From Escherichia phage vB_EcoM-613R2, in sequence record ON470591.1: a stretch of 26,627 bases of DNA; one strand, given 5' to 3'. Positions within the stretch are counted from its first letter, which is position 1; each line of letters begins with the position of its first letter. This document shows, in pieces, positions 16,418-25,982 of this stretch. The notes beneath the pieces were generated by a model. That model had not been told where the DNA came from and ran no database searches. It saw only the letters and a list, made by a program, of their open reading frames with translations. The position numbers and the translations under genes were made by a program.

Positions 16418-16801
16418 TTATGCAGATGGATTTTGTTGTGCGGTATTAAGGAATATTCCAACCTTCCGGCAAGCCAGATATACATCGGCAACTTTTGCTG
16501 ATTCAGGAAGGATAACCGCATGTGCATTGAACATTCCGGTCAGCCATGCTGTTCCGACTTGCGCTGAATCAGTCGCATCAATATTGTGTTGAGCGATACA
16601 ATACGGTTCTTTTGCCTCCCCTTCACCAGAGAGATTTATTGGCGCCACAGTGACAACATTTGTTTTCTGATCAATACTGACAAAAGCAAGTAGCTCACCC
16701 CGTTTTACTTTACCGCTGGCAAGTTTAATACTTGTTGGAATTGCTGGCATACCACCAGAAATAATCAGATTATCTGGTTCAAATGAAAAAGACTCTCGCA
16801 T
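16418..16801 (-). CDS. Head decoration protein (lambda gpD family)
   Basis: 127 aa, the size class of lambda gpD, positioned between the protease/scaffold and major capsid genes. Confidence 0.8.
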   Translation of the reverse strand: MRESFSFEPDNLIISGGMPAIPTSIKLASGKVKRGELLAFVSIDQKTNVVTVAPINLSGEGEAKEPYCIAQHNIDATDSAQVGTAWLTGMFNAHAVILPESAKVADVYLACRKVGIFLNTAQQNPSA

Positions 16802-16810
16802 AAACTCACC

Positions 16811-17899
16811 TTAATTTTTATCGCGGTTTTTAAATACTGACCCAATAACATTTTTTACTGCTTCAGCCTGTTTGTTGCCGTTGTTTTCTGGTTGATTAAC
16901 ATCAACTGAATCATTCACCTCACTTGCGTCTTCTTGCCGTTGATTAAGAAAGTTTTTGTTACGCGCTCGCTCTGCATTCATAATTTCCAAAGCAAGTTCA
17001 GCCGCAGAAACTCCTGTTTTGAATTTTGCATTCTTAACCAGGTCGTCATGACCAGGAATCACGCTATTCTCGATTGTTTCAATGCGCTCGCGTTCTGATT
17101 TAACGCCCTCGTCTTTACCAGCATTAAAAACCTGATTGTATAATTCTGGATATTTATTTTTTAATTCATCAAGAGTCACAATATCGTCCTCATTTTGTTC
17201 ATTTGATTCAGTAGATAACTCATTTTTATTTTGCGGCAACTTTGCGAGTGAATCAGGTAATTTTGAAAACCTTGATGCTTCAAAAGTTATTCCATTAAGC
17301 GAAAGCATCCCTTCCTTTATAGAAGCGGATAAGCGTATTGGTTTTTCAACTTCGTCAGCAAATCCAAGCTCTACAGCCTCTTCTGCATTTAGCCATGTTT
17401 CCTGATCCATTAGTTCAATTAATTTATCCTCAGAAAGCCCTGTTTTCTCCTTATATGCAGATAAAATACTATTGCGTATCTTATCCATCATCTCAGCAAT
17501 ATCACGCAATTCATCCGCATCGCCAGCAGCAAATGTCCACGGATTATGGATCATCATCATAGAATTAGATGGGATAATAATTTTATCACCCGCCATTGCA
17601 ATAATAGTTGCAGCCGATGCAGCAATCCCGTCGATATAAACCGTAATATTCGCCTTATGACGCTTTAATGATGAAAGAATAGCTTGAGCAGTAAAAACAG
17701 AACCACCATAACTATTAATTTTTACGTTGATAGTATTTGATGAAATATCCTTTAATTTATTAACTATGTCAGAAGAAGAAACCTCATCAAATTCACCAAT
17801 ATACCCGTAAATTAAAAGCTCAGCCGGAGAGTCATCTTCACCCGTGCTATTTTTTATTTCCCACCAATTAGGCATCATCAGTCTCCATATTTTGTTCAT
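16811..17899 (-). CDS. Prohead protease, ClpP-like, with a C-terminal scaffold-like region
   Basis: The N-terminal 190 aa contain a ClpP-like core (INSYGGSVFTA ... DGIAASAATIIAMAGDK ... SNSMMMIHNP). The C-terminal about 160 aa are acidic and helical-looking. The true start may be the ATG at 17878 (M8), which has a GGAG Shine-Dalgarno and avoids a 32 bp overlap with the portal gene. Confidence 0.85.
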   Translation of the reverse strand: MNKIWRLMMPNWWEIKNSTGEDDSPAELLIYGYIGEFDEVSSSDIVNKLKDISSNTINVKINSYGGSVFTAQAILSSLKRHKANITVYIDGIAASAATIIAMAGDKIIIPSNSMMMIHNPWTFAAGDADELRDIAEMMDKIRNSILSAYKEKTGLSEDKLIELMDQETWLNAEEAVELGFADEVEKPIRLSASIKEGMLSLNGITFEASRFSKLPDSLAKLPQNKNELSTESNEQNEDDIVTLDELKNKYPELYNQVFNAGKDEGVKSERERIETIENSVIPGHDDLVKNAKFKTGVSAAELALEIMNAERARNKNFLNQRQEDASEVNDSVDVNQPENNGNKQAEAVKNVIGSVFKNRDKN

Positions 17900-19689: not shown

Positions 19690-21546
19690 CTATATGGTTA
19701 CGCCTTTACTTATAACTCTACGGCGTCTTCTACGTATACCTGACGAGTTCTGCACATACACATTACCTCGCATTTCCTGTTCGGCAAGCCAGTTAAAATT
19801 AGGGTTCAGAATTTCCATCGCGGCAGTTGCATAGTTACGGCAATCAAGAGGCTCGTTACGCTCGTAGACTTTCACCCACTTTTCTTTTGTCTGCCCATTT
19901 TTATATTCAAATATTTTTTTCTCTGATAATAATCCTTTAAAGTATTCGGTATCATATCCTCTGTCAGAATCTAATGGGAAATGCATATAACCAGGACCAG
20001 GATCATGTAGTTTAATTCTTGCCATGATGGTCCCTTTACCATCATCAACCCCCAAATTAAACAACATAGCACCCACACGGTTATTATTACTTGGCTTTCC
20101 TATAAATGGTAAACCTACCCCACCACGCCCCCTGATAGAGTATATTCGCCTTGATTCTCTCGGCTTAGTAAAGCGATATACCTCTGTCGTAAAATGCCCA
20201 CCAGAGTCAATACAAACGGAAGAAATCTGTAATTTTCGACCGTCACGGAATGACCAGCTACGGAGTAAGTATTCATCAAGTTGTTTCCAGACAACATCTT
20301 GTGCGGGATCACCTGGGAATATTTTATATTCTATCCCCCATGACTCCTTACCTTTTCCCCAACCGACCAATTCACAAACTAAATACGTGTCCTGTACGTC
20401 AACACCAGCACTTAACAATAAAACATCATCTGGTAAAAACTCTTCAAACCTTATTCTGCGTTGCAACAAGTATTCAGGATCGATATCGTCTTTAGCATCC
20501 TCTTTCCATGGCTCACCCAGCTTAAGGTTAATAAACTCCATTAATCCATTTTTATCGCGGTTTCTGGTTGCTTCCGTAAATTCTTCAACCAGCTCTGACA
20601 ATGCAACCCACGGGGAGTAAAGACTGTTAATATGAAAACCAACAATACCTTTAACTCCAGTATGTTCAGCTATCCATACCCCCTTCGCCAACCAATCAAC
20701 GTCTGGTTTACCAGATCCGCGCATAATCCCGCCGCACTCACAGCACTCATATCTGGCCGTTTCCGGTAACGCCTCACCTGAATCGCTCTTATCCCATCTG
20801 ACTTGCGACCATTTCATCACCTGCATGGTGCCACAACATGGGCAAGGAACATGGTAGTAACGCTGATCGGAGAGCTTAAACCACTTGTGGATTTTGCTTG
20901 TTTCCTCCAAAACAGGAGTAGAAACAAAAACTTTCTTACGATTATGAAAGTTGGTAGTACGCTGAATACCTAGTTTTAGTGGGTCGCCCTCCTGCGTCAC
21001 ACCGTAACGATCAATCTCATCACCTAACAGTATTCGAATTGGCCTGGATGCAAGACCTGCTGGGGAATTAGCACCAACAAGTGCTATATATCCACCAGCG
21101 TAATGCTTCATACGTATAGTCGTGCTGGACTTTTTGGCTGCACCGCGCCCCTCTTTCCCTTCATGCAGCTTGTGTTTCAAACCAGGGGAATATTTGAACG
21201 TCGGATCAATACGCTCTTTTGAAAAAGCCTCAGCCGCCTCTACCGTTGGATAAATCATCAACTGAGGAGATGGCTCCTGATCTGCAAAGTAACCCATAAC
21301 ATTTAGCTGTAATTCGGATTTACCAATTTGCGAGCTACATTGCATCACTACTGTTTCTGTATCAGCGTCACCAATAACATCCATTGGTTCACGCAAATAT
21401 GGCACTCGGCTTGTACGCCACGGCCCTGGCTCTGGAGACGTTCCCGGCGCTACATGACGATACTTATCAGCCCATTCGGAAACAGTTAGCCGTGATTTAG
21501 GGCGAAGCGCACGGAAAAAAGCGGTGCTCCATACTGTTTCGCCCAT
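19690..21546 (-). CDS. Terminase large subunit (lambda gpA family)
   Basis: 618 aa. The N-terminus (TVSEWADKYRHV) resembles the lambda gpA N-terminal region. Cys-rich pairs (CPCCG, CCECGG) are present. Sits between the small terminase and the gpW-like gene. Confidence 0.9.
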   Translation of the reverse strand: MGETVWSTAFFRALRPKSRLTVSEWADKYRHVAPGTSPEPGPWRTSRVPYLREPMDVIGDADTETVVMQCSSQIGKSELQLNVMGYFADQEPSPQLMIYPTVEAAEAFSKERIDPTFKYSPGLKHKLHEGKEGRGAAKKSSTTIRMKHYAGGYIALVGANSPAGLASRPIRILLGDEIDRYGVTQEGDPLKLGIQRTTNFHNRKKVFVSTPVLEETSKIHKWFKLSDQRYYHVPCPCCGTMQVMKWSQVRWDKSDSGEALPETARYECCECGGIMRGSGKPDVDWLAKGVWIAEHTGVKGIVGFHINSLYSPWVALSELVEEFTEATRNRDKNGLMEFINLKLGEPWKEDAKDDIDPEYLLQRRIRFEEFLPDDVLLLSAGVDVQDTYLVCELVGWGKGKESWGIEYKIFPGDPAQDVVWKQLDEYLLRSWSFRDGRKLQISSVCIDSGGHFTTEVYRFTKPRESRRIYSIRGRGGVGLPFIGKPSNNNRVGAMLFNLGVDDGKGTIMARIKLHDPGPGYMHFPLDSDRGYDTEYFKGLLSEKKIFEYKNGQTKEKWVKVYERNEPLDCRNYATAAMEILNPNFNWLAEQEMRGNVYVQNSSGIRRRRRRVISKGVTI

Positions 21547-21551
21547 GAGGT

Positions 21552-22103
21552 TTATTCTTCCTGCTTAATAAATCGGGATTCCTGGAGCGCCTGAAGCGCA
21601 AAATTAATCTCGTCTTCAATAATGCGCTCGATCTCCCTGGCTGTTTTGCCTTCACAACGGGGAGCTGCTCTTGGAGCAATACTAAATAAGCGGCTACGCA
21701 ATTCATTAGCTGCCAGAAATGCATCATCCCTGACCGCATCTTTAGCGATGAGAGAGCCTTCCTTTTCTTCAAATTCAAGGCGTTTCAGCTTTGCCTGATA
21801 AATTTTTTCTGCGGTCTTAGCCTTGTTGAATTGCACCGCAACACCGGAAGTACCACCAGCTAATCCGGCATCATCAGCGGGTAACTCTGGTTGTTCCGAA
21901 GATATCCCATGCCCTCTTTTTCCATTTTCAGCAGATACCTCACGACCAACCTGTCGGCTCGCTTCATAAGCCGCACTGGCTTTATCAAAATCCAGCTTGC
22001 CGCTTTTCAGCACTGGAATGCGACCGGAACGACAGAGCTTCGTAACCATTGCCGGAGAAATACCTTTCCGGCGGGCAAACTCTGACTTACTGACGATGGC
22101 CAT
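21552..22103 (-). CDS. Terminase small subunit (lambda Nu1-like, N-terminal helix-turn-helix)
   Basis: I place the start at the ATG at 22101-22103 (MAIVSKSEFARRKGISPAMV...), which overlaps the upstream TAA (TAATG). The ORF track opens 9 nt earlier at a TTG. The N-terminal HTH followed by PVL.SG.K resembles Nu1. Confidence 0.75.
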   Translation of the reverse strand: MAIVSKSEFARRKGISPAMVTKLCRSGRIPVLKSGKLDFDKASAAYEASRQVGREVSAENGKRGHGISSEQPELPADDAGLAGGTSGVAVQFNKAKTAEKIYQAKLKRLEFEEKEGSLIAKDAVRDDAFLAANELRSRLFSIAPRAAPRCEGKTAREIERIIEDEINFALQALQESRFIKQEE

Positions 22104-22693
22104 TACTTGCAACCATTAGCAAGATACTGAACAAATCCCTCATGCGTTTCATGCGCGTCGTGGTACTGACGATAAACATCCAGCAACAATGCAATTTCCA
22201 TATCCGTCGCGGGAATACGTTCTTTATCAATAGCCAGGTACTTAATTTGAACAACAGGGGAAGAATTATCGTCTTCTTCCTGCGGCTGTTCATCGCTTAA
22301 CATTTCGTCAAGCTCTGCATCATTAAACCCAAGCAGATCAATATCAAAATCATCATCCATTAACTCTTTGACTTCTTCGGCCAGAAGCTGCATATCCCAG
22401 CCAGCATTTAAGGCCAGCTTGTTATCTGCAATCCTGTAAGCCTTCTTCTGTTTTTCAGAAAGGTTACTCAACCGAATCGCCGGAACTTTATCCATTTCCA
22501 GAATTTCGGCTGCTGCAAGCCGCCCATGCCCCGCAATCAGTTCATTCTTTTCATCGATCAGCACAGGATTAGTGAAACCGAACTCACGGATACTGTTCAC
22601 CAACTGTTCAACTTGCTCATCTGAATGAGTCCGTGAATTTTTGGCATATCTGAGCAACTTACCGACTGGTAAATATTCGATTTTTAGAGCCAT
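22103..22693 (-). CDS. ParB N-terminal-domain (ParB-like nuclease/sulfiredoxin-fold) protein, copy 1
   Basis: 196 aa with the ParB-NTD-type core NSRTHS...PVLIDE.NELIAGHGRLAAA and QKKAYRIADNKLALNAGWD. Translationally coupled to the small terminase gene. Paralogous to 25359-25982. Confidence 0.8.
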   Translation of the reverse strand: MALKIEYLPVGKLLRYAKNSRTHSDEQVEQLVNSIREFGFTNPVLIDEKNELIAGHGRLAAAEILEMDKVPAIRLSNLSEKQKKAYRIADNKLALNAGWDMQLLAEEVKELMDDDFDIDLLGFNDAELDEMLSDEQPQEEDDNSSPVVQIKYLAIDKERIPATDMEIALLLDVYRQYHDAHETHEGFVQYLANGCK

Positions 22694-23249
22694 TTTTTAA
22701 CCGCCATAACACAACAGGTTAAAGAAAACTGTTTAACTTATTGATACTAAAAGAGAAAAATGACGATCTTTTTACTCATAAAAAATCACACAAACCAGCA
22801 TAATTATCTGATTTTATTAAGTTTTTATAAGTAAAAAGGATCTTGCGATGGTGTTTTGGTTAAAAGATTGGATGTATTTGCATGATTTATAACGATTTTT
22901 ATCAGAACAACATCACATTGGTTAAAGATCTGCGCGTATCTTGATGATCTAAAAGAAAATTTTCCACTTTCTTTTTACCAGTACAAATACAGAAAAAATC
23001 ACGTTTTCCCGATATTTTTCAATGAGATGAGTAAATTTCTTTTACCGCAACTTTTAACCTAACTTTTTTCACGTTTAGCTAGCCGAATATCGGGGTTCGA
23101 ATGACCCGCATCCAACGCTTTTGGCCAGAAGGACCCAATTCTGCCGGACGATGAAACGATGCTCGTGCTCCCCCACAGACAGCCAGCGAGCGACGCTACA
23201 GAACACAGTGAATACACTCTGCATAACAACACCATCAACCACACGATGA
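22694..23249. other. Long non-coding region of about 556 bp, AT-rich in its lower part and GC-richer in its upper 160 bp; candidate packaging (cos) and/or regulatory region
   Basis: No convincing ORF on either strand: the two small minus-strand ORFs overlap each other and have no Shine-Dalgarno. It is the only large gap in the window and sits upstream of the packaging operon. Confidence 0.4.
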
Positions 23250-23969
23250 TTAACGAGAGAAAGTCTTAGAAAGAATGTCATCAATAGCCTTTGTGACTTC
23301 ATCAGCAAACGCATCCTCACCAGCACGCAGCGCCACGCCATGCCAATCAAGACGCTGCGAATAGTTAGGTTGCTGGATAAACGTAAGGATCAACGTAGGA
23401 CGCCGCCCAACGCGCTGCCAGACGCCTGGTTGAAGCGGGTTACTTGTACCAGGTCGAACAACAAAAAACTCCGTAGGCTTGCCCTGACGGCGATTTTGAT
23501 GCGCATCTCGCTGAACTCTTAGGCCAGATAAGACCTGCTGTAATTGCCCCCGCGAAATATTCCCGTATTTGTCCAGCTTTGCGCCGGGACCAGGAGCAAG
23601 CTGCCAGCCGTTAGGCAAATATCCACCAGCCCTTAGCGCCCCTTCTGAGCGTTTGTACTGTCGTTGTCCACCTTCGATTTGCGGAGTCAACGTTACAGGG
23701 GCTGGCGTTCCTCCCCATTCACGAGCATACACAATGGCTGTAGGATCACTCTTCTTTGCGGCCAAAACGTAAGTAGAGTTCTGAATCCACGGCGTGGGCC
23801 TGTCAAATACCCGATTAATTTCATTCTTAATCGCAGCCTGAGAAGCCTTTGCCGTTCTGGTTGCCGCAAGCGCCATTGCGAACGGCAATTCGCGTTCTTC
23901 AAGGCGCTGGAGTTGTCGTTGAATATCCTGAGAAGAAAAATCCATCTTTATCTCAATTCTGTCAGCCAC
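23250..23969 (-). CDS. Hypothetical protein (239 aa), last gene of a three-gene operon with the ParB/methyltransferase genes
   Basis: GTG start at 23969 preceded by a strong AGGAGG 5 nt upstream; an alternative ATG lies at M9. GC-rich. Gly/Pro/Arg-rich central region. No motif recognised. Confidence 0.6.
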   Translation of the reverse strand: MADRIEIKMDFSSQDIQRQLQRLEERELPFAMALAATRTAKASQAAIKNEINRVFDRPTPWIQNSTYVLAAKKSDPTAIVYAREWGGTPAPVTLTPQIEGGQRQYKRSEGALRAGGYLPNGWQLAPGPGAKLDKYGNISRGQLQQVLSGLRVQRDAHQNRRQGKPTEFFVVRPGTSNPLQPGVWQRVGRRPTLILTFIQQPNYSQRLDWHGVALRAGEDAFADEVTKAIDDILSKTFSR

Positions 23970-23985
23970 CAGCGCCTCCTACACA

Positions 23986-25359
23986 CTACTTAATCAACGG
24001 CCGGAAAGCCGCCAGCACATCATCAGATCGTCCGATTGTTGAACCACCAGGCAACGGCAACTCAAACTCAAAACGAACAGCTTTCTCCAGACTCGCCCAA
24101 CTAAGGGAATCATCGTTAATGACGTGCAAATACCAGCTCTTACAGTTGAATATTGACCGCTTAATCCTGAAACCATGTACACGACACAACTGCTTCACTT
24201 CATCATCAGAGTGAAACTTCTGGTAAAACCAGTGCCCCTTCCGGTACAACGCGGTAAAACCGTTATGATCAATAAAATAAAGCCGGCTTTTGGAACTCGC
24301 CGCTTGTGTTTGCTTCAGGACTGTTTCCAGCTCTCCACGGCTACGACCAGAAAAGAATATTGACCCACCAGCTTTACACAGGCCTTTCAGAACCGTCAGA
24401 ACGGACCATTCAGCCTCGACACTATCGACCGAGTTCAAAACGCTATCGCAAATCACGTAGTCGTAACGCCCTCGCGTTTTTAAGTCGTCCACCAGCGTAT
24501 CAATCATCCGGTTTGTTGCGGTCCTATCCAGAGTGTTTCCAGCGCCCTTACGGCGGAAAAGCTCGAGATCATGCAGGTTATATCCCTTTGCCCTGAGCAT
24601 TCGCGCGTAGTCTCCCTGCCCCGAACCAAAATCAATTCCTCTTGGCGTCTTGGCGATGATCGGGAGGATCAACGACTCATACAGGTTTGATTTCAGGCTG
24701 CCACCATTACGCAACCGCATAAGCTGCGCATACGTCTGGATGTATGTTGTTTTCTCCAGATGAGAATACTCAAATACACCATAAGTTTTATTCAGATAAC
24801 TTTGGTATTTTCCCTTCTCAACATCAGGGATCACAAACACCGTTAGCGGTGTGCGCGTCATCTTCGCTGCTAATGCATACTGAGCACAGTGAATAACCTC
24901 GCCAGACTGAGTAGCAACACAACCACCCCACGGACCATACTTGATAACCAGTTCCGCTATGTTCTTTCGAACATATGCCATTTTCGCGCGCATATTGCCT
25001 GAGATCTGGCTTGCCGATACCTGAACAAAACCATGCTTATCTTCCAGACCGGACACCCTGCAACGCTCATCTCCGCTATCAAAATCCGTTCCGTTATGCA
25101 GTTGGTTAAACCGTACTTCGTCGTATACCGTCGTTTCACAGGGCAACACATACACCGCAGCACGCGTTATTCCCAACTTACGTAGCGCCTTCGTCCTTTG
25201 GTGTCCCGCCACCAGCAAATCGCCACGCACTATCAATGGCTTCACAAGCCCCAGCTCCCTGACGCTTTCCGCCAGCCTCGCAAGATCATCCTCACCGATA
25301 AAACGCGGGTTATATTCCGCGCCACGTAGGTGCGTTATGTCGTAATTGAGGTGAAGCAT
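23986..25359 (-). CDS. Fusion protein: N-terminal ParB-like domain plus C-terminal class I SAM-dependent methyltransferase domain
   Basis: I place the start at the ATG at 25357-25359, which overlaps the upstream TGA; the track opens at a GTG 6 nt earlier. N-terminus has a ParB-NTD-like LVAGHQRTKA. C-terminal half carries Rossmann methyltransferase motifs: motif I GIDFGSGQGDYARML, an acidic residue after beta-2 (NLHDLEL), YDYVICDSVLNSV, and LKGLCKAGGSIFFSG. No DPPY/NPPF amino-methyltransferase motif seen. Confidence 0.75.
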   Translation of the reverse strand: MLHLNYDITHLRGAEYNPRFIGEDDLARLAESVRELGLVKPLIVRGDLLVAGHQRTKALRKLGITRAAVYVLPCETTVYDEVRFNQLHNGTDFDSGDERCRVSGLEDKHGFVQVSASQISGNMRAKMAYVRKNIAELVIKYGPWGGCVATQSGEVIHCAQYALAAKMTRTPLTVFVIPDVEKGKYQSYLNKTYGVFEYSHLEKTTYIQTYAQLMRLRNGGSLKSNLYESLILPIIAKTPRGIDFGSGQGDYARMLRAKGYNLHDLELFRRKGAGNTLDRTATNRMIDTLVDDLKTRGRYDYVICDSVLNSVDSVEAEWSVLTVLKGLCKAGGSIFFSGRSRGELETVLKQTQAASSKSRLYFIDHNGFTALYRKGHWFYQKFHSDDEVKQLCRVHGFRIKRSIFNCKSWYLHVINDDSLSWASLEKAVRFEFELPLPGGSTIGRSDDVLAAFRPLIK

Positions 25360-25982
25360 CAGCACACCTCCCCAGCCAGCAATGCGGATACAAATCCGAT
25401 ATAGCTGCCATTATCATCAACATAACGAGACACCGCGCAGTCAAAACGATCCGCTTCCTCATCCGTTGCCGGGATTTTATGACCTCCAAATGACAGGTAC
25501 TGAACTTTTACGCCTGATTTGGCCTCATCCTTCTCAAATGGGATATCCATACCCTCTGTGTCATCGTAGACCGCCGCACTCAATAAGTTATCCAGTTCGC
25601 GCTGAGTAAAACCAATTGAGTCCAGAGCAAAATCATCGGCCGCAAGATCTGCAAGCTCCGCGCTTAACAGCTCTTCATCCCAACCAGCATTCAGCGGAAT
25701 ACGGTTGTCGGCCAGACGATATGCCTTCTTCTGATTCTCCGTTAGCCCTTCCAGAACAATGCAGGGAACGTCATCCATCCCCAACTGAGTGGCCGCAGCA
25801 ATTCGACCATGACCAGCAATTACAACGTTGTTCTCGTCTATCAGGATCGGATTAGTCCATCCGTACTCCTGTATGCTGGCAACAATCTGATCTACCTGCT
25901 CCACGGAGTGTGTGCGAGCGTTCTTTTCATAACCAATCAACACAGAAAGTGGTAAAGAAACCACATTAAGATGTTTTGTCAT
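25359..25982 (-). CDS. ParB N-terminal-domain (ParB-like nuclease/sulfiredoxin-fold) protein, copy 2
   Basis: 207 aa. Collinear similarity to copy 1 (NARTHS...NPILIDENNVVIAGHGRIAAA...QKKAYRLADNRIPLNAGWD...K.QYL....KIPATD). ATG at 25982. First gene of the three-gene operon. Confidence 0.8.
   Translation of the reverse strand: MTKHLNVVSLPLSVLIGYEKNARTHSVEQVDQIVASIQEYGWTNPILIDENNVVIAGHGRIAAATQLGMDDVPCIVLEGLTENQKKAYRLADNRIPLNAGWDEELLSAELADLAADDFALDSIGFTQRELDNLLSAAVYDDTEGMDIPFEKDEAKSGVKVQYLSFGGHKIPATDEEADRFDCAVSRYVDDNGSYIGFVSALLAGEVC

Follow-up and report, generated by a model that had tools for sequence, protein, structure and literature searches.

What does a ParB-fold protein do when its gene lies between the cos site of a phage and the gene for the small terminase subunit? 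The question is raised by a 196-aa ORF, called ParB196 here, on a stretch of 26,627 nucleotides from Escherichia phage vB_EcoM-613R2 (ON470591.1) that was analysed as a whole and is referred to as the window. The window is part of a 47-kb myovirus phage-plasmid of E. coli; RepA and ParA are encoded on the plasmid prophage. The initial annotation had regarded ParB196 as a possible accessory DNA-binding or nuclease factor acting at cos, or else as a cargo gene.

The ParB196 gene and its surroundings at cos

The features of the locus, with the evidence for each, are as follows.

19690-21546, minus strand: large terminase gene (terL), gpA type, with its own nuclease domain (Pfam)
21552-22103, minus strand: small terminase gene (terS), 183 aa, pI 9.1, N-terminal HTH-like segment (phrog_57, comparison with X29)
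22101-22105, minus strand: TAATG stop/start overlap of ParB196 and terS (direct sequence reading; TGATG in the 79%-identity clade)
22103-22693, minus strand: ParB196 gene (ORF listing, Pfam ParB_N, phrog_620, AF2 model)
22694-23249, no strand: non-coding spacer between the neck gene and ParB196 (composition profile; no gene-strand ORF)
22694-22702 (minus), 22717-22725 (plus), 22858-22866 (plus), 22920-22928 (plus) and 23051-23059 (minus): five GGTTAAARR repeats, within 22694-23059
23091-23111, minus strand: conserved cos core ATGCGGGTCATTCGAACCCCG (identical block in six relatives from three clades)
23250-23969, minus strand: 239-aa gene directly before cos, putative virion neck protein
23986-25365, minus strand: ParB_N and Methyltransf_23 fusion, 459 aa (Pfam; phrog_5475 over the full length)
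25359-25982, minus strand: short ParB paralog, 207 aa, same domain order as ParB196 (identity, phrog_620)

The range given for ParB196 includes its stop codon. Pfam ParB_N (PF02195) matched residues 15-86 with 33.7 bits (E 3.8e-08), above the gathering score of 26.3 bits, and phrog_620 matched over the full length (residues 1-195, E 4.6e-75). These matches, along with the ParB/Srx fold described below, bear out the assignment of ParB196 as a ParB-NTD-like protein. The overlap with the small terminase gene is likewise read from the sequence: TAATG (reverse complement of 22101-22105) holds the TAA of ParB196 (22105-22103) and the ATG of terS (22103-22101), with one base in common. From this junction, ParB196 is predicted to be translationally coupled to the small terminase.

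The product of terS matched phrog_57, 'terminase small subunit' (E 1.4e-41), and was 43% identical to the annotated terS of X29. Phage_Nu1 gave no match to it in Pfam or NCBIfam, and only a weak N-terminal HTH-type match was seen. The gene is thus a small terminase gene, as had been stated, but its description as Nu1-like was not borne out. Downstream, TerL gave strong Pfam matches to GpA_ATPase (1.6e-75) and GpA_nuclease (1.1e-84), and terL is followed by genes for a DUF6148 protein and then a lambda-family portal (Pfam). On the other side of cos, the 239-aa gene probably codes for a virion neck protein and, along with ParB196, is a conserved member of the backbone.

ParB196 is the first ORF past the conserved cos core. 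The Yersinia phage records vB_YpM_39, 41 and 44, on which a literature search found no paper, all begin and finish at cos, and their ends join at 23094|23095. The X29 record has ends homologous to this junction, and read coverage indicates that the ends of X29 are defined (PMC5690320). A scan for sigma-70-like promoters in the 556-bp spacer upstream of ParB196 found none. As the spacer yielded no promoter and the upstream genes are co-oriented, ParB196 seems to belong to a late operon transcribed across cos. The view of ParB196 as the first gene of the packaging operon is correct by position.

The part of the spacer proximal to ParB196 (22694-23059) is AT-rich, with about 27% GC, and an Rfam search of 22694-23249 gave no match. 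All five matches of GGTTAAARR in the 26.6-kb window fall inside this part; the chance expectation was 1.37, and five or more matches occurred in 0 of 100 shuffles. GTTAACA repeats are found at the equivalent position in X29 and R20L, and the GGTTAAARR repeats are conserved only in part in the 79-86% clades. They are candidate cosB-type sites, to which terS may bind.

Domains and conserved residues of ParB196

ParB196 was divided into four segments, all encoded on the minus strand.

22409-22693, minus strand: predicted nucleotide-binding ParB N-domain, residues 1-95 (alignments A2 and A5, Noc/ParB alignment, Foldseek)
22289-22408, minus strand: acidic helix pair, residues 96-135 (AF2 model, charge calculation, phrog_498 and PADLOC MTase_II models)
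22244-22288, minus strand: disordered acidic linker, residues 136-150 (pLDDT below 50 at residues 136-148)
22106-22243, minus strand: C-terminal domain, residues 151-196 (AF2 secondary structure, conserved columns)

The AF2 model of ParB196 had a mean pLDDT of 82.6, and Foldseek returned a probability of 1.00 for this model with Noc, ParB, KorB, PadC and sulfiredoxin (Srx). In the N-domain, N19, R21, H23, S34, G39, G55-H56-G57-R58, D90 and N91 are invariant in the family (alignments A2 and A5). Both the Box I arginine and the P-motif GxxR of the nucleotide pocket are kept, the latter as G55-H-G-R58 (nt 22520-22531). When ParB196 was aligned with Noc and ParB, N19-S-R21 fell over Q-P-R and GHGR over GERR; at the ParB hydrolysis residues, ParB196 carries N19 for Q and H56 for E. 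The invariant pocket residues (N19, R21, S34, G39, G55, H56, R58, D90, N91) match the M. xanthus ParB residues listed in PMC13229309. The homology and structure search that the initial annotation had suggested thus found the fold, with the predicted pocket residues kept. ParB196 probably binds a nucleotide; for the ParB-CTPase fold, the sequence does not predict whether this is CTP, ATP or GTP (PMC12704722).

The helix pair has the pattern WD..LL..E..L...DFD..LLGF..ELD and a net charge of -14, and is common to ParB-methyltransferase fusions; in the model, residues 96-135 form three short, acidic helices (101-113, 118-121 and 125-132). The C-terminal domain is modelled as a beta-hairpin (E151-155, E158-162) and two helices (H164-181, H187-192), and its conserved columns are YL.F...IP....E...Y....G...GF (alignments including A5). 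The same C-terminal-domain family was also found in short ParBs encoded ahead of a ParB_N-Methyltransf_23 fusion.

According to Pfam, NCBIfam and the AF2 model, ParB196 has neither an HTH nor any other DNA-binding domain, and no HNH or other nuclease family matched it in Pfam, PHROGs or NCBIfam. Among the PADLOC and anti-defence families, it matched only the methyltransferase N-module. The canonical partition ParB model, TIGR00180, gave 40.1 bits, below its curated cut-off of 58.45 bits, and the N-terminal sequence has no LG[KR]GL ParA-binding motif. The calculated pI of ParB196 is 4.5, complementary in charge to that of terS.

Conservation and gene partners of ParB196

The order neck gene, cos, ParB196, terS, terL was kept in 22 of 22 relatives with 76-100% identity. 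The situation of the 207-aa paralog is different. Its product is 48% identical to ParB196 over the full length (E 1e-61) and matched phrog_620 (E 2.9e-74), and its gene lies 2,666 bp upstream, as the initial annotation had it (a divergent paralog 2.7 kb upstream). A third ParB_N domain in the window, not reported there, is the N-terminus of the 459-aa Methyltransf_23 fusion, the canonical partner gene of the 207-aa paralog, whose stop it overlaps. When absence was scored within 10 kb upstream of ParB196, the island formed by the MT-A70, 207-aa and 459-aa genes was missing in at least 14 of the 22 relatives that keep ParB196. One of these relatives (L108) is 99% identical, yet has neither the 207/459 cassette nor the MT-A70 gene. 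The upstream copy thus lies in an accessory island, missing from most relatives. As the two copies are also non-sister sequences in an NJ tree, the choice left earlier between a domain duplicated and one acquired twice falls on the latter.

The dN/dS of ParB196 against an island-less relative was 0.046 (dN 0.088, dS 1.9), indicating purifying selection; since dS is saturated in most gene pairs, this is the single usable value. Most relatives have an intact ORF; in a few (L126, L127) the match is broken or partial. ParB196 is therefore part of the conserved backbone and not random cargo, the latter idea being contradicted by the invariant synteny, the X29-type gene order and the low dN/dS of about 0.05. 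The MT-A70 methyltransferase was considered as a backbone partner and rejected, being present only alongside the 207/459 cassette. In one contig (L124), the terS next to an unchanged ParB was only 48% identical and looked like a natural swap, but this proved to be frameshift noise in the contig.

X29-group Vibrio phages also have the order ParB, terS, terL, with identities of 59% for the ParB N-module, 43% for terS and 63% for TerL. The C-terminal domain is wholly different between the window and X29 lineages, though their terS genes are homologous. X29-type phages carry a single ParB and no MT23. ParB followed by terS is seen as well in a relative (L068) with a TerL of the Terminase_3 type. 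It may be noted that gpA-type phages with the same order of neck gene, terS and terL exist without any ParB gene.

The search for relatives returned 35,735 clusters (50% identity). Residues 2-148 of ParB196 matched phrog_498 (E 3.9e-52) and the PADLOC MTase_II model PDLC03229 (E 2e-40). Among the matches listed, this N-module shares 50-60% identity with the N-termini of phage ParB-methyltransferase fusions from many phyla, and likewise with stand-alone ParBs encoded just before Mom-like, Tet_JBP or methyltransferase genes; the fusions with the same N-module number in the thousands. Twenty short stand-alone ParBs were checked singly for the next gene; there were 11 Mom-like genes, three split methyltransferases, two phrog_11143 members, one glycosyltransferase-like gene, one terS and two unassigned genes. 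Pfam scans of further loci found Tet_JBP next to ParB in L055, Mom in L078 and, in L022, a set of genes downstream whose last member codes for an amino-acid:DNA transferase. The matches listed are mainly to the N-module, and six contexts among them belong to distant relatives with the C-terminal domain of ParB196; in all six, the short ParB is directly followed by a ParB_N-MT23 fusion, forming a two-gene cassette. These partners point to ParB196 belonging to a clade of phage ParBs whose partners are DNA-modifying enzymes and which has been linked to terminase genes as well.

Like the ParB-methyltransferase fusions (phrog_498; PDLC03229; N6_N4_Mtase and Methyltransf_23 fusions, PMC12704722), ParB196 has the common N-module. 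Unlike them, it has no methyltransferase domain; its linker leads into a C-terminal domain of 46 aa. It resembles the short member of the phrog_620 and phrog_5475 cassette in its full-length phrog_620 match and its C-terminal-domain family, but no fusion gene follows it and it is kept where the cassette is missing.

Possible roles of ParB196

The closest functional model is ParB176, which has no DNA-binding domain and is needed by the adjacent dioxygenase 5mYOX176 on dsDNA (O'Toole et al., PNAS 2026, PMC13229309). Compared by published description, the two proteins share a nucleotide-binding domain, a short helical segment, an unstructured linker (roughly 50 aa in the ParB176 type, PMC13229309), a C-terminal domain and the lack of a DNA-binding domain. 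The spacing of N-x-R, S and GxxR is alike (N14/R16/S29/R56 in ParB176, N19/R21/S34/R58 in ParB196). Both genes lie in phage late or terminase-proximal regions, and L055, the relative of ParB196 with Tet_JBP directly downstream, comes from IMG/VR. ParB196 differs in that it is followed by terS and not by a Tet_JBP/5mYOX gene; no Tet_JBP match was found by Pfam in nine scanned ORFs of the window, and the annotation of the related plasmid pECO-b75 lists no such gene.

The type of locus is already described: PMC4738411 (Iyer, Zhang and Aravind) presents a phage 'ParB-terminase large subunit locus' (Tls), to which the window corresponds in having a ParB_N gene just upstream of co-oriented terminase genes, with ParB196, terS and terL contiguous. 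ParB_N genes in this position were seen with terminases of the GpA, TerL_ATPase, Terminase_3 and Terminase_6 types. By definition, the Tls locus includes a DNA-modification enzyme. None lies between ParB196 and terS; ParB196 is flanked by the neck protein gene and terS, with no modification enzyme fused or adjacent. A full fit is seen only for the upstream cassette of the 207-aa paralog with the 459-aa MT23 fusion.

We tentatively favour the reading that ParB196 serves as a nucleotide-gated adaptor to a partner that acts on DNA, and that this partner is terS or the terminase at the cos-proximal repeats; we hold this to be possible, though short of probable. ParB196 would be a ParB/Srx protein from the 'modification-type' clade of phage ParBs, expressed late from the first ORF past cos. 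Probably as a dimer, it would help a basic DNA-binding partner engage phage dsDNA just before or during packaging, as ParB176 does for 5mYOX176. The terminase is favoured as the partner since only terS is invariably linked to ParB196 in the lineage. The ParB176 precedent argues for this adaptor role, being a phage ParB of the same architecture on which a neighbouring enzyme depends. So does the habit of the clade, where the neighbour is the partner (methyltransferase fusions, adjacent modification genes), the overlapping neighbour of ParB196 being terS. The backbone status in all 22 relatives, kept where the island is missing, and the low dN/dS point the same way. ParB-then-terS recurs deep and independently (X29 group; L068), the charges of the acidic ParB196 and the basic terS are complementary, and the locus type is known from PMC4738411.

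Other observations tell against an adaptor for the terminase. The C-terminal domains differ completely between the window and X29 despite homologous terS genes, and the distant relatives with the window-type domain pair with the MT23 enzyme and never with terS (6/6 among the matches listed). Tight gene overlaps are frequent in phage late operons, irrespective of whether the products interact. The gpA-type phages of the same layout without ParB imply that ParB196 cannot be a general packaging requirement. Moreover, N19 and H56 replace the hydrolysis residues, and the label 'nucleotide-gated' is uncertain for ParB196, as pocket mutations did not abolish the function of ParB176 (PMC13229309).

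The same adaptor mechanism might instead serve a DNA-modifying enzyme in trans, with ParB196 as a second short subunit or heterodimer partner of the 459-aa fusion or of another methyltransferase, tuning modification before packaging. The six relatives just mentioned would fit this, as would the modification partners of the whole clade, the precedent in PMC13229309 and the presence of the 459-aa enzyme in the window, only 1.3 kb from ParB196; among complete E. coli genomes, ParB196 occurs in 72 and the 207/459 cassette in 71. We nevertheless consider it rather improbable, because at least 14 relatives, L108 among them, keep ParB196 without the cassette or the MT-A70 gene, purifying selection was seen against an island-less relative, and X29-type phages have a lone ParB without MT23; the 459-aa enzyme, besides, already possesses an overlapping 207-aa ParB and a ParB_N domain of its own. 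An autonomous, moron-like accessory, such as an anti-defence or late host-directed nucleotide-binding protein unrelated to packaging or phage DNA modification, is unlikely but deserves serious consideration. Orphans of the ParB-CTPase fold are widespread on mobile elements with varied roles (PMC12704722), ParB196 is acidic without a DNA-binding domain, some gpA-type phages do without ParB, and insertions around terS are common, as seen in the variable island alongside. Against an accessory role, the position beside terS is constant and not variable across deep divergence, the N-module is nearly identical to those of enzyme-linked ParBs, and the only PADLOC or anti-defence match was to the methyltransferase N-module.

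We infer that ParB196 is not a nuclease and does not bind a centromere. That it binds or cuts cos DNA, by analogy with the HNH endonucleases of HK97-type terminases (gp74), was the initial proposal and is in our view very improbable. ParB196 is indeed a small gene beside the terminase genes at the cos end, coupled to terS; 'nuclease' is found among the source names, and DNase activity is reported for some ParB/Srx proteins (Osa, as cited in PMC13370423). However, its fold is unrelated to HNH and carries no HNH motif or nuclease family match, the gpA-type TerL has a complete GpA_nuclease domain, and an acidic protein (pI 4.5, helix pair -14) with neither HTH nor basic surface does not suit direct binding. 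A nuclease would also be harmful in the thousands of methyltransferase fusions with this N-module, and one relative (L090) has a separate HNH gene beside its ParB cassette. A centromere-binding ParB for partition of the phage-plasmid, suggested by the plasmid prophage with RepA and ParA and by the label 'chromosome (plasmid) partitioning protein' in one phage record, is barely credible. Canonical CTP-dependent clamps (ParB/Spo0J, Noc, KorB) share the N-domain fold and the GxxR P-motif, but ParB196 differs from them in GHGR for GERR and N for Q in Box I, falls short of the TIGR00180 cut-off, and lacks the HTH, the ParA-binding motif and a parS-type role. In pECO-b75, parA lies about 17 kb from ParB196 and has its own small downstream partner gene (82 aa), and homologues occupy the same place in X29 (a linear record with defined ends) and in many prophages. 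HerB/YfjB, being much larger and HTH-containing, was set aside as not comparable. Equally slight is the probability that ParB196 is the functionless remnant of a ParB and enzyme cassette. One contig (L089) carries a complete ParB and ParB_N-MT23 cassette upstream of terS, which starts 180 bp away from the end of the contig; if such a locus lost its enzyme gene, precisely the gene order of ParB196 would result. The selection signal (dN 0.088 against dS 1.9) already speaks against this reading, as do the ORF intact in most relatives, the retention of all pocket residues and an N-module still 59% identical in Vibrio phages.

Within the favoured terminase-adaptor reading, a more specific version, which we regard as doubtful, makes terS the DNA-binding module that ParB196 is missing. 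The ParB196 dimer would close, under nucleotide control, round terS on GGTTAAA-type repeats, giving a composite clamp that sets up or times the initiation of packaging at cos; the enzyme-linked ParBs would then be variants with a modification enzyme in the place of terS.

Beside phage terminase genes, ParB-fold proteins that lack a DNA-binding domain are encoded very commonly, and only one class has been functionally tested so far, the activators of a thymine dioxygenase. A computational proposal of 2013, cited in PMC4738411, coupled modification at the ParB-terminase locus to packaging. The phage-plasmid offers a clean natural test case: a lone, strongly conserved ParB with terS as its sole fixed neighbour, replicating as a plasmid in tractable E. 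coli, with natural variants that have or lack the neighbouring modification island. If loss of ParB196 were without effect, it would be one more orphan ParB. ParB196 bears on the question whether packaging itself is a target of such ParBs, or DNA modification alone.

The ParB196 gene and the predicted structure of its product

ParB196, a protein of the ParB/Srx fold, is encoded directly before the small terminase gene (terS). The features of the region are as follows.

25359-25982, minus strand: 207-aa paralog of ParB196, 48% identical over the full length
23986-25365, minus strand: 459-aa ParB_N and Methyltransf_23 fusion, its start overlapped by the stop of the 207-aa paralog
23091-23111, read on the gene strand: 21-bp block at the presumed cos, ATGCGGGTCATTCGAACCCCG, shared unchanged by six relatives of three clades
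22694-23059: AT-rich stretch of 366 bp (27% GC) between cos and ParB196
22103-22693, minus strand: ParB196, 196 codons in the ORF listing
21552-22103, minus strand: terS, matching phrog_57 'terminase small subunit' (1.4e-41)
After terS: large terminase gene (terL) with GpA_ATPase and GpA_nuclease domains, then a DUF6148 protein, then a lambda-family portal

The two genes overlap at TAATG, the reverse complement of 22101-22105, where the last base of the ParB196 TAA is the first base of the next ATG. In the 79% clade the stop/start overlap is retained, with TGATG replacing TAATG. ParB196 exceeded the ParB_N gathering score of Pfam (33.7 against 26.3 bits), and its match to phrog_620 spanned the full length (4.6e-75). 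Both the ParB-like ORF overlapping the terS start and the divergent upstream paralog reported in the initial annotation were confirmed. The 'Nu1-like' label that it gave to the small terminase was not, because no Phage_Nu1 match was obtained in the family searches.

AlphaFold2, given 25 diverse homologues, produced a model of mean pLDDT 82.6 in which the following segments are predicted.

aa 1-95: ParB N-domain
aa 101-132: three short helices
aa 136-148: disordered segment
aa 151-192: small C-terminal domain, a beta-hairpin and two helices

The Foldseek neighbours of this model were Noc, ParB, KorB, the pNOB8 ParB N-domain, PadC and sulfiredoxin. The fold and its pocket residues had earlier been marked for checking; Pfam recovered ParB_N, and Foldseek the proteins just named. 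Set against the residues that PMC13229309 lists for M. xanthus ParB, the pocket retains the positions that contact phosphate and base, and both hydrolysis residues are altered (Q to N, E to H). Among the residues invariant in the family are N19, R21, H23, S34, G39, G55, H56, R58, D90 and N91. In HMMER alignments with Noc and ParB, N19-S-R21 fell on Q-P-R of Box I, G55-H-G-R58 on GERR, and D90-N91 on E-N of Box III. With a pI of 4.5 the protein is acidic; the net charge of its helix pair is -14.

Iyer, Zhang and Aravind describe a phage 'ParB-terminase large subunit locus' whose enzymes are predicted to modify DNA during packaging (PMC4738411). The fold survey of Kaljevic et al. reports that fusions to N6_N4 and Methyltransf_23 methyltransferases are enriched in phages, and states that the fold binds CTP, ATP or GTP and that sequence cannot predict which (PMC12704722). 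O'Toole et al. showed that a thymine dioxygenase encoded next to a stand-alone phage ParB needs that ParB for its activation on double-stranded DNA. In such ParBs a nucleotide-binding domain is followed by a helix-helix segment, then an unstructured linker, then a C-terminal domain, and there is no DNA-binding domain; both terminal domains are needed, and nucleotide-pocket point mutants are still active (PMC13229309). ParB196 shares this architecture; hence neither the type of protein nor the type of locus is new. The family and locus type have been described, and it is the enzyme-less setting that is unusual.

Conservation of the terminase-proximal genes and the presumed cos

When 22 IMG/VR relatives of ParB196 (76-100% identity) were compared, the order 239-aa gene (a probable neck gene), cos, ParB196, terS, terL was kept in all 22. 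The cassette formed by the 207-aa paralog and the 459-aa fusion was present in only three and was absent within 10 kb upstream in at least 14, one of them 99% identical; among these relatives an MT-A70 methyltransferase gene occurred only where the cassette did. Since the order is kept throughout and the cassette is mostly absent, ParB196 belongs, judged by gene order, to the backbone, and the cassette forms an accessory island. The comparison with a relative lacking the island gave dN 0.088 and dS 1.9 for ParB196, a ratio of 0.046 that is the single usable one, dS being saturated in other comparisons. The same order was found at the left end of Vibrio phages X29, phi 2, R20L, XM1 and Rostov 7 (59% identity to the window for the ParB N-module, 43% for terS, 63% for terL), in which the C-terminal domain of the ParB is unrelated to that of ParB196. 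In one further locus (L068) a lone ParB precedes terS with a Terminase_3-type enzyme. In gpA-type phages with the 239-aa gene, that gene lies directly before terS, with no ParB between. An apparently 48% identical terS in contig L124 (10591-11130) was set aside as a probable sequencing or assembly artefact, showing frameshifts against a 99%-identical sister contig. The initial annotation had offered a cargo gene as one alternative; on sequence comparison the gene is conserved, under selection and part of the terminase-proximal backbone.

The record ends of Yersinia phages vB_YpM_39, 41 and 44, start and end alike, all fall at 23094|23095. This junction is homologous to the ends of X29, whose genome announcement gives defined ends from read coverage (PMC5690320). 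The flanks of the 23091-23111 block diverge among the six relatives that share it, and we take the block as the presumed cos. The first ORF beyond it is ParB196, with terS and terL next, in keeping with its earlier placement as first gene of the packaging operon.

All five matches of the whole window to GGTTAAARR lie within the AT-rich stretch (1.37 expected; 0 of 100 shuffles reached five). GTTAACA repeats occupy the same position in X29-type phages, and conservation of the GGTTAAARR repeats is partial in more distant relatives. These repeats are plausible candidate terS (cosB-type) sites. It may be noted that an insertion/deletion of ~90 bp, at about 22888-22977, distinguishes the window from vB_YpM_44; the longer spacer form is apparently present in vB_YpM_39 and 41, judging by ParB coordinates (415 vs 313). 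Among the IMG/VR matches listed, the ParB gene started <150 nt from a contig end, reading inward, in 14 of 80 viral loci (L007, L008, L018, L019, L021, L028, L039, L044, L046, L058, L075, L076, L078, L084), which suggests that, in many cases, no other gene lies between it and a physical genome end.

Relatives, cassette and replicon

An exhaustive, profile-free search gave 35,735 clusters of ParB196 relatives at 50% identity. Many align over aa 1-140 only (55-60% identical) and many are 350-450 aa long; the N-module is the N-terminus of phage ParB-methyltransferase fusions (phrog_498, 3.9e-52; PADLOC MTase_II, 2e-40). Long fusions made up 75 of the 80 family matches listed in the species-dereplicated set, where the first large complete downstream ORF (31 loci listed) was a further methyltransferase in 13 and a large terminase, of three different families, in nine. 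Among the matches listed, 70 IMG/VR loci were tallied for the gene after ParB: small terminases of phrog_309 (13) and phrog_57 (7), and less often of phrog_141 and phrog_51, whose counts may overlap; Mom-like (11) and glycosyltransferase-like (9) proteins; and DNA methyltransferases of several families, three to four members matching each. Twenty short stand-alone ParBs, scanned individually, were followed by a Mom-like protein (11), a split methyltransferase (3), phrog_11143, which is ABC-ATPase- and acetyltransferase-like (2), a glycosyltransferase-like protein (1), terS of the X29 type (1) or a gene assigned to no family (2). Pfam scans of individual loci found Tet_JBP (L055) or Mom (L078) after ParB and, downstream of ParB in L022, a kinase-like protein, a glutamine amidotransferase and an amino-acid:DNA transferase.

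Six distant relatives with the same C-terminal domain were examined in their own contigs. In all six the overlapping next gene was a 452-470-aa ParB_N and Methyltransf_23 fusion, with large terminases of several kinds 0-3 ORFs later (GpA; TerL_ATPase with an HNH gene nearby; Terminase_6N/6C; Terminase_6C alone; intein-containing Terminase_6C). This arrangement matches the upstream paralog, not ParB196, and the two window copies were not sisters in a neighbour-joining tree. The two-gene cassette is conserved between metagenome contigs L089-L095 and the window (23986-25982), the fusion being 41-63% identical, and is followed directly by terminases of several unrelated types. The fusion is a non-canonical methyltransferase, its phrog_5475 being labelled 'unknown function'. 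The accessory island comprises MT-A70 (outside the window, at 16625-17212 of locus L004), small ORFs, the 207-aa ParB and the fusion (minus strand); nearly all E. coli copies carry it, against three of the 22 IMG/VR relatives, and MT-A70 and the cassette always co-occur.

Circular plasmids of 47-49 kb in 72 E. coli genomes match the window region at 99-100% identity (75 of 76 matched places lie on plasmids), and so do vB_YpM_39, 41 and 44. Judged by gene content, the element is a phage-plasmid: besides genes for RepA, for toxin-antitoxin functions and for ParA, the last with a small gene downstream, the related plasmid pECO-b75 has the full gene set of a myovirus. The three Yersinia phages, isolated on Yersinia pestis EV76, share 99% identity with plasmids resident in clinical E. 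coli; thus one phage-plasmid circulates as virions and plasmids across genera. A related Salmonella plasmid, pAR-0407-1, carries in its early region a DGQHR-domain (DndB-like, ParB-fold) protein (L097, 28000-29058); this type of replicon would then have one more ParB-fold gene.

Probable role of ParB196

By analogy with ParB176, the phage ParB that activates the dioxygenase 5mYOX176, an adaptor is the best-supported mechanism: ParB196 would bind nucleotide, probably as a dimer, and late in infection would aid a partner protein in its work on phage double-stranded DNA. The gene adjoining or fused to a ParB of this clade is its working partner wherever tested or obvious. As the neighbour of ParB196 is terS, across deep divergence and in relatives without the modification island, the terminase is tentatively favoured as that partner, although it speaks against terS that the C-terminal domain is swapped in the X29 lineage and that gpA-type phages without a ParB exist. 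An autonomous accessory function is unlikely. Action in trans on the Methyltransf_23 enzyme would suit the C-terminal-domain family of ParB196, but is rather improbable, ParB196 being retained where the enzyme is absent.

The initial annotation's guess of a cos-binding or nuclease factor, likened to HNH proteins, was supported only in part: the place beside the terminase stood, while direct binding or cleavage of DNA by ParB196 is very improbable, the protein having no DNA-binding module and a fold unrelated to HNH, and TerL carrying its own nuclease domain. Unlike partition ParBs, ParB196 has no HTH and falls below the TIGR00180 cut-off (40.1 vs 58.45 bits); a canonical partition role is excluded by these data. 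That the gene serves partition, or is a decaying remnant, is scarcely credible. ParB196 offers a tractable system for asking what this very common class of phage ParB acts on: packaging, DNA modification or the two together.
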